Source of the DNA: Hormoscilla sp.
Lineage (GTDB): Bacteria; Cyanobacteriota; Cyanobacteriia; Cyanobacteriales; Desertifilaceae
Reading direction: 5' to 3'
NCBI GenBank assembly: GCA_051439505.1
Contig: JBFRWI010000147.1
Span: forward strand, 1-48,133
DNA length: 48,133 nucleotides
Shown here piece after piece: positions 1 to 3,000 of this stretch. A program made the position numbers. The stretch's first letter is position 1. The number at the start of each line of letters is the position of its first letter.

Positions 1-3000
1 GGGACCACTCACGCTCAGGGACCACTCACGCTCAGGGACCACTCACGCTCAGGGACCACCGATAGCTGTAGGGGCGAAGCTAAGGAGTGACCCTTCGGCT
101 AACGCTCAGGGACCGCCAATTATGACATAAATTTACAGATCCCCTCTCCTCAGGCAACGCCGAGGCCCCCCGCGAGGTCTTCGGTGTACCAACTGTTTTT
201 GACCACACCCATTGCTGGCTGACAACGAACTATTACTGGCTTACATTAACCCTATGTAAGCTTACATTAACCCTATGTAAGCTTACATCAACCCTATGTA
301 AGCTTACATTAACCCTATGTAAGCTGATTCTAAGCAAATGTAAACGGGTGTGTAGGGGCAGTTGTTGCACAAGGAGCCCCCCAAACCCCCCCGTGGAGGA
401 GATCCGGCGACTGGGAGGCCCCCCCAATACTGCATATAGTTTGCAATAAATTCCTCGGGGGGGAGTGGGGAGTGGGGAGTGGGGACAATACTTCAAGGTT
501 TTGCATGGCGGCAGGTACATTTGGGTGCGGCCCCTTCGCCCGTTGGTAGTAGCCCGAACCCTAAAGGGCCCGGCTATTCCGAACTAAGCCCGCCTGCGTG
601 GTCCCTGAGCGTTAGTCGAAGGGCGGGCTATATACCTGTATCACCAGATGCGCCTGGCGCCTGGCGATCAACTACTTTTGACCACACCCCTCTCTACCTT
701 GTCTAGATAAGGATGTACTCTCGTTCCCAGGCGGAGCCAGGGAACGAGTTCTAGAGGCAGAGCCTCTAGTTGAAAATGGTGCAAGATCTCAGTTTTAACC
801 GACTAGAAAGAGCGCCAAATTCGTAGGGTGGGCACCGCCCACCTTACAGCTTATAATTGCCTGGGAGGGAAAGGTGAGCGAGTTATAGGATACAGAAGAG
901 CGAATAGACTGGGGGGCGACGCCCCCCAGCAACTCAAAACCATTATGAATCAATGATTTTCTCCCCTCTCCCTGCGAGCTGCGATCTGCGAGAGCAGCTC
1001 GCTCGCGCAAGGGAATTCGCCGACAGCATCTTATAGTGATGGAGTTGTCAGACTCAAAACGGAGAAGTGAATATGTCTGAGATCGATCGAGATGGTCAGC
1101 TGTGGATCCTGAACGAGTTTTTTGGCATCAAAAGCATCCCACCGGCTGAAGACTCTGTGACGGGTCTCAAAGCAGCCCTCATTTGTGCAAAAGCAGACGG
1201 CGTACTGGCACCAGAAGAAAGAAACTGGGTTGTTGGTCGCGCTGCCACACTGCGCAATCCCGGGTATGAATTAGCCAAAACTTACCCAGCGGATGAGAAT
1301 TTGCTTGAAGTGATCGCTAAATCATCTGCTGTGGACAAGAGCGGTCGTCGCCTGGTAATTTATGTAGCTATTAAGGCTTGTGCTGCGGATGGAGAATACC
1401 ATCCTTCGGAACGGGCGAAAGTTCACAAAATGGCCAAAGCGCTGGGTATTGAAGAAGATGTCGTCAATCAAATCGAGGAACTTTGCGTATCCGAAGCCAA
1501 GATCCGAGAACAACGGATTGGCCTCATGTTTCCCGACGGCGTACCTTATTAGAAAGTATCCAAGAGATCTGCCTGGGAGCGCTTGTTGAAGGCTCTGCCT
1601 CCTATTATAGTCACAGGAGGCAGAGCCTCGAAACGACGTTCCCAGCGAGACCCTGGGAACGAGAGTCTTGAAAAGAGAAGGCGATCGAAATGGCGTTTGA
1701 AATTCTTGCAGCAAATACTCCCGCCCATCTAGACGGTATTTTTAAAATAAGACACAAGGTTTTCTGTGAGGAAGAGGGGTATCTTTATCCCACAGATAAT
1801 GGCAGGGTGATAGATCGTTTTGATGCTTTCCCAACAACTACAAACTTAGTAGTACTGTATGAAGGTAGAGTAGTAGGAGGGATGCGTATTACACTAGATT
1901 CTGAAATGGGAATACCACAAGATGATTACTATGATTTTCGCAGTCATATTCCCAGAAATATCCATGTCATGGGATGCGGGCAAAAATGCGTAACCAAAGA
2001 GTTGAGATCTCCGAAAATTGCTCGGGGACTAATCCTAATGGCGATGTACTTTGCTGTTTCACATGGAGTACCGTACATCGTCGCAGTAATCAATCCAGAC
2101 ATAGCAAAACTGCTTAAGCGAGTAGGTTTTCAGGCTTTGGATGGTGAAATTATCGTTCCCCATATTAGAATACCAGTAATTCCCGTTTTGTTAGATATGC
2201 GGGATCTCAAAGACTATTTCATGAACTTCGCTATCAAGAACGAATTGTATAACTTCCTCAAGTCTTACAACTGTATGTTTTTCTCCCAATCAGAGCAGAT
2301 TATTAGAACAGGAGAGCCAGGAAACGCGGCTTTTATAATTATTGAAGGCGAGGCGGAAGTTAGATATAAAGATACTATATTGACGAGTTTAAGCCAAGGA
2401 GATGTGTTCGGGGAATTGGCACTCTTTACTGATGACATTCGCTCAGCGGACGTTTTTGCAAAAACTGAAGTGAAAGCGATGGTGCTCAAGAAGGAGGATT
2501 TTTTATCCCATCTTAAAGAGAATCCTCAACAAGCACTGAAGTTAATCTCCGGTATGGCAAACAGATTAAAGTCCTTAACCAATCAAATTAAAACCTAGCG
2601 CTCCCCTGAGGCTAAGTGGATGTCAAGCAAAGATTCGGTATTACCGATTAATTGAGATATAAAACACGAGATATCAAACTTAACAGATAATGTTTTAGTC
2701 GGGCGATCGGGCGGGATGATTTATGAATCAGTACAGCATGATTATTCAATGGTCTGATGAAGATCGGCTTTTCCTGGTCACGATTCCAGAATTTGCCGAT
2801 CGGGTAATACTCACGGCAAATCTCGTTTGGAAGCAATTCGTAACGGCGAAGAAGTGATAGAAATGTATTTGGAGGCTTGGCAAGCAGAAGGTGAGTCCAT
2901 CCCAGAACCAAGTACGCTGCAAATTGCCTGAGGAAGATCGAGTTTCTTGACAAAGCTGCGCTAGTGCAAGATATCATGTATAATCAAAGAGGCGCGATCG

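Follow-up and report, generated by a model that had tools for sequence, protein, structure and literature searches.

The gene described here encodes an N-acyltransferase domain of FeeM fold joined, within a single chain of 302 residues, to a cyclic-nucleotide-binding (cNMP-binding) domain. From its fold, domain order and pocket residues and from the gene neighbourhoods of its family, all of which are observed, we infer ligand binding, switching and acylation: with a probability of roughly 0.6, the protein is a NasP-like enzyme, switched by cAMP or cGMP, whose acyl acceptor is a small amine, presumably an amino acid, and whose relatives then methyl-esterify the product. As a concept, the cAMP-gated lipo-amino-acid synthase has precedents; the testable interest lies in the methyltransferase cassette of the family and in an active site free of the usual glutamate.

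In molecular terms, the C-terminal domain would hold cAMP or cGMP by means of G241, E242, R251 and S252. A CRP-like shift of the C-helix, with R292, would then alter the activity of the N-terminal domain, which would take a fatty acyl group off acyl-ACP or acyl-CoA and place it on an amino acid's amine, without recourse to the FeeM Glu. In most close relatives the methyltransferase encoded upstream would methylate the free carboxyl group, yielding an N-acyl amino acid methyl ester; Hormoscilla would have acquired the acyltransferase gene alone; its product would stop at the free N-acyl amino acid, and its specificity may have changed. Features of the window--that is, of the whole 48,133-nucleotide stretch of Hormoscilla sp. 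DNA that was analysed--are given below, with the evidence in brackets.

1073..1552, forward strand: TerB-like gene, of which the genome has several paralogues; not conserved as a partner (Pfam, 72-locus survey)
1568..1666, no strand: palindromic repeat found genome-wide; left cassette edge (repeat search, genome comparison)
1690..2598, forward strand: two-domain open reading frame, FeeM-fold N-acyltransferase plus cNMP-binding domain, 302 residues (translation, Pfam, model, fold matches)
1690..2205, forward strand: N-acyltransferase domain, residues 1-172 (alignment of 282 relatives, structure-based comparison)
2212..2520, forward strand: cyclic-nucleotide-binding domain, residues about 175-277, with phosphate-binding cassette F240-G-E-L-A-L...R251-S-A253 (Pfam, alignment)
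2524..2595, forward strand: CRP-like C-helix, residues 279-301, with conserved R292 and no HTH domain after it (model, alignment)
2715..2930, forward strand: frameshifted HicB-like antitoxin gene; right cassette edge (genome comparison)
3181..4341, forward strand: MTOX/sarcosine-oxidase-like gene, located elsewhere in G001-G003; not a conserved partner (profile match, genome comparison)

Two domains in one chain

The fusion gene is real, and its 302 codons contain no internal stops. Within the protein, a Pfam scan places Autoind_synth at residues 12-148 (E 1e-8), FeeM (PF21926) at residues 17-168 (E 8e-23) and cNMP_binding (PF00027) at residues 198-277 (E 5e-17), each above its cut-off, and an AlphaFold model built on a 78-sequence alignment has a mean pLDDT of 91. 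The top fold match of this model is FeeM (2G0B), both by Foldseek (E 8e-11) and by VIA (Z 21.0, rmsd 2.9, 173 aligned residues, 19% identity); in the latter comparison AHL synthases (Z 16.7-17.9) and generic GNATs (Z 17-18) rank a few Z units lower. Hence the two-domain architecture given in the preliminary description is borne out by Pfam, by a confident model and by the fold match, and its count of relatives was obtained again: 98 hits among 1174 candidates in the protein database search, 80 of them with both domains. Its identities of 52-55% for relatives from Pseudoalteromonas, Pseudovibrio, Rhodovibrionaceae and Sulfurovum were too high, the measured values being 44-48%; the closest relative with a named source is from Hormoscilla sp. 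Against the profile of the exosortase-associated acyltransferase TIGR03694 the protein scores 50.5 bits, below the curated cut-off of 111.95. A second FeeM-family gene of the source genome (G000:C44:28599-28934) has a single domain.

A synthase domain is combined with a cNMP pocket both in this protein and in NasP, which reportedly carries a cNMP-binding domain of its own, for which we know of no methyltransferase partner, and which is known here by description and not by sequence. NasP is directly activated by cAMP, according to the title of its report (Clardy & Brady 2007, PMC1951892), is called a cAMP-activated synthase in one sentence of PMC4897644, and has the accession ABB76600 in the available part of PMC11631085. 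Nas343 and Nas354, published in 2016, are PilZ-fused synthases that, in the accessible text of PMC4897644, have PilZ (with c-di-GMP as proposed ligand) in place of the cNMP domain and that keep the Glu. The present protein is thus not, as had been supposed, the first second-messenger-gated member of the LuxI/FeeM superfamily, because NasP (cAMP, 2007) and the PilZ-bearing Nas343 and Nas354 precede it. No database relative bears the name NasP in the protein searches, of which one returned the best 120 of 237 and in which most hits are nameless. Neither the family nor its methyltransferase pair is described in the literature searched, which included the available parts of PMC8762209, PMC7293339, PMC12479983, PMC11580390, PMC8433624 and PMC11631085, took in few subscription papers and had supplements outside its scope.

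An acyltransferase domain lacking the usual glutamate

Residue conservation was counted in a pool of 368 proteins, of which the 282 spanning both domains were used. R21, D45 and R66 are identical in all 282; the N-terminal half has a LuxI-like D-R-F-D together with R66, the three residues cluster as in AHL synthases, and it is AHL synthases that provide the top PDB sequence-profile matches, which lie within this half. A G-x-P-x-D segment, on the other hand, aligns with FeeM. In the alignment G95 occupies the beta-4 Glu position of both FeeM and the AHL synthase 5W8C (FeeM Glu95 being chain residue 96, with a one-residue offset to the published numbering assumed), and positions 94-96 are without Glu in 281 of the 282 two-domain relatives. 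Thus the protein is like the FeeM type I synthases in its fold (Z 21), in matching PF21926 above cut-off and in its G-x-P-x-D segment, but unlike them in having Gly for the catalytic Glu, a LuxI-like N-terminal half and an extra cNMP domain. Since G95 replaces the beta-4 Glu by which both type I synthases and LuxI are defined, assignment to either class was rejected.

That the protein is a LuxI-type AHL synthase using SAM is highly improbable, although the Autoind_synth match and the PDB profile matches would point that way. With LasI, TofI and RpaI it shares the fold and the N-terminal Arg/Asp residues, but the beta-4 E-x-S-R of 5W8C becomes G95-C-G-Q98 in the alignment, Arg occurs at position 98 in 3 of the 282 relatives, and position 32, the Trp of which we take to be a SAM-site residue of AHL synthases, is F, L or M in the family. 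In addition, the LuxR sensor domain Autoind_bind (PF03472) gave no match in the 93% complete source genome in a search whose E. coli control was positive. The AHL-like product envisaged earlier is not supported, given the loss of the beta-4 Glu and Arg and no LuxR domain found in that genome.

Mycobacterial Pat, which acylates protein lysines, likewise has a GNAT and a cNMP domain in one chain but in the reverse order. It is very unlikely that the present protein is a cAMP-regulated protein lysine acyltransferase of Pat type with reversed domains, or that it uses some other non-amino-acid acceptor. Generic GNATs do score close after FeeM (Z 17-18), and the LCM fold of the partner methyltransferases described below includes protein carboxyl methyltransferases; the Pat model (NF058543), however, covers only the cNMP domain (residues 186-300, at 32.6 bits where the cut-off is 460), the G-x-P-x-D segment finds its counterpart in FeeM, and oxazolone synthetases occur among the neighbours of the family.

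Many GNATs function without a single general base. In Nas354, by contrast, E103A abolished activity, so that the Glu is essential there (available part of PMC4897644); its absence from 281 of the 282 relatives is an argument against the enzymatic reading preferred here. If that reading is right, a widespread branch without a supposedly essential Glu implies a different catalytic route.

Nucleotide pocket and gene neighbourhoods of the family

Judged by its residues, the phosphate-binding cassette is canonical. Among the 282 two-domain relatives G241 is conserved in 277, E242 in 276, R251 in 266 and R292 in 272, and position 252 is Ser in 187 and Thr in 57. Because the cassette and R292 are conserved across these relatives, binding of a cyclic nucleotide is likely; the pocket residues, as far as they can be read, do not discriminate cAMP from cGMP, and the source genome encodes both Lys-type and Glu-type cyclases. 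A structure prediction for the homodimer with cAMP scored 0.28 against a mark of 0.42. Direct control by cAMP or cGMP, as originally proposed, appears plausible from the FeeM-type fold and the canonical pocket.

Control need not be exerted on an enzyme: the N-terminal domain may have little or no catalytic activity and may bind an acyl thioester or acyl amide, the protein acting as a dual-input sensor with the C-helix as its signal route. This is unlikely, but it would accommodate the family-wide absence of the catalytic Glu and the make-up of the longer relatives. At least 350 residues are present in 138 of the 282 relatives; 21 longer relatives that were scanned include one HisKA/HATPase fusion, one GGDEF fusion, three proteins with two cNMP domains and one with a sub-cut-off CRP-HTH; and a 396-residue form matches CRP over residues 200-387, again below cut-off. 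These histidine-kinase, GGDEF and CRP-like-tail fusions fit a sensor role and to that extent count against the enzymatic reading. Against a sensor, no output domain is present in the 300-residue form, tailoring enzymes recur beside it, and R21, D45 and R66 never vary among the 282 relatives. Proteins of about 400 residues with FeeM-like, cNMP and CRP-like tail regions make up a large group (P0249-P0368; L016, L018-L021) that possibly consists of enzyme-transcription-factor fusions.

Gene neighbourhoods were surveyed at 73 loci--the window, 22 of at least 80 loci from one scan, and 2 and 48 from others--of which 72 have a callable gene; the remaining 58 of the at least 80 were left out because the match was confined to the cNMP domain. 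Identity is at least 40% at 41 loci. Upstream sequence of 500 nt or more is available at 39 of them, and 32 of these 39 carry an LCM/TIGR00027 methyltransferase directly upstream, as against none of the 31 loci below 40% identity. Near-duplicates from few samples account for many loci (several of them metagenomic); the median identity of the upstream methyltransferases is only 46%, and the named hosts among the matches listed belong to three phyla (Pseudomonadota, Campylobacterota and Spirochaetota). The earlier statement that there is no conserved pathway is consequently wrong for the family. Two of the seven exceptions are Hormoscilla loci: the copy at 1690-2598 has lost the family's methyltransferase partner, and the two LCM-family genes of the source genome match the partner profile weakly (24 and 19 bits). 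At L089, L098, L099 and L100 the fusion gene is in tandem duplicate behind a single methyltransferase, and L003 has an additional FeeM-only fragment.

Other partners occur further afield. At L119 and L132 a full ThiF-nitroreductase of the Rv1355c family (above cut-off) is directly upstream of the family member, and no other acyltransferase was seen in the locus. Nitroreductases of this type cyclise N-acyl amino acids from a neighbouring OxzA or TrzA, according to the available parts of bioRxiv 2020.06.11.147165 and PMC12856293. As far as those sources describe OxzAB and TrzAS, the two distant members resemble them in adjoining a ThiF-nitroreductase as the sole acyltransferase seen, but lie downstream of the nitroreductase, whereas oxzA and trzA lie upstream; the context of the gene at 1690-2598 differs from both. 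At L114 an FAD oxidase precedes the family member, and one relative is a P450 fusion. Small-molecule N-acylation is favoured by these methyltransferase, ThiF-nitroreductase, FAD oxidase and P450 contexts, despite the missing Glu. Genes for cNMP-patatin lipases lie near family members at L119:1726-3483 and L101:3576-5789.

A CHASE2-type nucleotide cyclase, or its tail, occurs in 8 of the 72 loci. Of the seven cyclases with a visible catalytic region, six have the Cya2-type Glu and the seventh (L010) is, by its motifs, presumably adenylate-type. Synechocystis Cya2 is a guanylate cyclase, converted to an adenylate cyclase by the E488K substitution (PMC5995499, in the part available). Oxazolone synthetases and cyclases are neighbours mainly of family members in other branches, at 32-47% identity. 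At L011, L012 and L123-L126, where the beta-4 sequence is a distinct S-C-D-L/M-H-C, the family member stands beside an operon with CHAT, DUF928 and a CHASE2 guanylate-type cyclase, a candidate cGMP circuit; such a branch could provide a direct enzyme target for cyanobacterial cGMP.

The conserved methyltransferase partner predicts a specific product class without a known synthase: for marine methyl esters of N-acyl amino acids, no synthase gene is reported as found in the accessible part of PMC11580390. We put forward only tentatively, as a possibility with the odds against it, that the methyltransferase-linked enzymes make these esters and that one cyanobacterial branch is cGMP-gated by the neighbouring Cya2-type cyclase. 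Since the acyltransferase-methyltransferase pair was found in no more than 1 of the 401 genomes from the family to which G427 belongs, it probably does not account for the common roseobacter esters.

The copy in Hormoscilla

In Hormoscilla, on the best reading, the gene forms a single-gene cassette, patchily distributed and low in GC, that lacks the methyltransferase. Its GC fraction is 0.40 against 0.48 for the genome, a value equally low in 2% of 2623 long ORFs. Among the four other genomes of the genus it is present in one (G004), and a further member of the family (G010) has a 5'-truncated copy, making 3 of 41 genomes in all; a survey of the phylum found it in 2 of 401 genomes, the source genome included. 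Where a single other cyanobacterial bin (39% identity) had been reported, there are Spirulina sp. at 47% and two uncultured cyanobacteria at 37% (among the matches listed), besides G086 and the truncated copy in G010.

The match in G004 (87.5% nucleotide identity) borders almost exactly on the gene ends, has other immediate neighbours, and lies in inverted orientation at a distance of about 1.5 kb from genes matching the window at 20.5-27.4 kb, from which a single acquisition with local rearrangement in the genus is likely. The TerB-like and MTOX-like genes were discounted as partners because the other 72 loci show no recurrence of either and because the immediate neighbours in G004 differ. 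Between the repeat and the hicB-like gene, G002, G003 and G004 carry different sequence, about 250-330 bases long, with a small ORF in the case of G003. An intact HicB-like copy of 72 residues is found at L145:1524-1742, and at the frameshift site contigs of runs X5 and X6 carry 10 extra bases.

Acquisition from marine proteobacteria, as first suggested, stands in part: GC content, patchiness and the sister group make a foreign origin plausible, the proteobacterial donor being only putative. Quick trees were built of 64 rows and, with LG+G4, of 33 rows picked by hand. The genus groups as a single clade whose sister group includes a methyltransferase-linked gammaproteobacterial locus (SH-aLRT 94), but an AU test with the 33 rows does not reject a single cyanobacterial clade (p 0.09).

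It is rather unlikely, though less so than the other alternatives, that the family is enzymatic and the Hormoscilla copy an orphan drifting under relaxed selection after loss of the methyltransferase. The sparse occurrence in the genus and the truncated copy in G010 would agree with this, as would a dN/dS of 0.60 against G004 (0.70 in the N-domain; own counting method). For four genes with matches on the window's contig the values are 0.10-0.49, so that the fusion gene, by these counts, evolves faster than its neighbours. Moreover, Q77, Q98 and V133 substitute residues conserved among close relatives (A77Q, M98Q and P133V occur in none of 54); at the next position to Q98, K99 substitutes F/Y/L. 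Yet the frame and pocket are intact, dN/dS is below 1, Q98-K99 is common to an 84% identical relative, and the six departures at conserved N-domain columns compare with a mean of 4.9 (sd 3.5) across the 54 relatives. The enzymatic reading must nevertheless bear the dN/dS, the loss of the near-invariant R39 from a 97% identical variant and the lack of a pathway neighbour.

Contigs identical or near-identical over parts of the gene occur in runs X1 and X2 (one study, and either possibly the assembly's own sample), and a variant in run X5 spans the gene. The largest DNA shares are in marine sediment (four runs, one study) and coral (one run), a sponge run having 0.05 of the words present; none of the 16 runs listed is an RNA run. 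A sponge- or host-directed signal, as had been imagined, thus finds no support.

Scans for promoters and terminators gave results at or near shuffle level. The palindromic repeat recurs at 717-766, and each of the five genomes of the genus has numerous copies, which bracket interchangeable small genes. In run X5 one joint skips the fusion gene and another leads back to the TerB-like gene, which points to cassettes arrayed in tandem. The contig end carries 17-bp and 21-bp tandem repeats, at 1-59 and 239-343.
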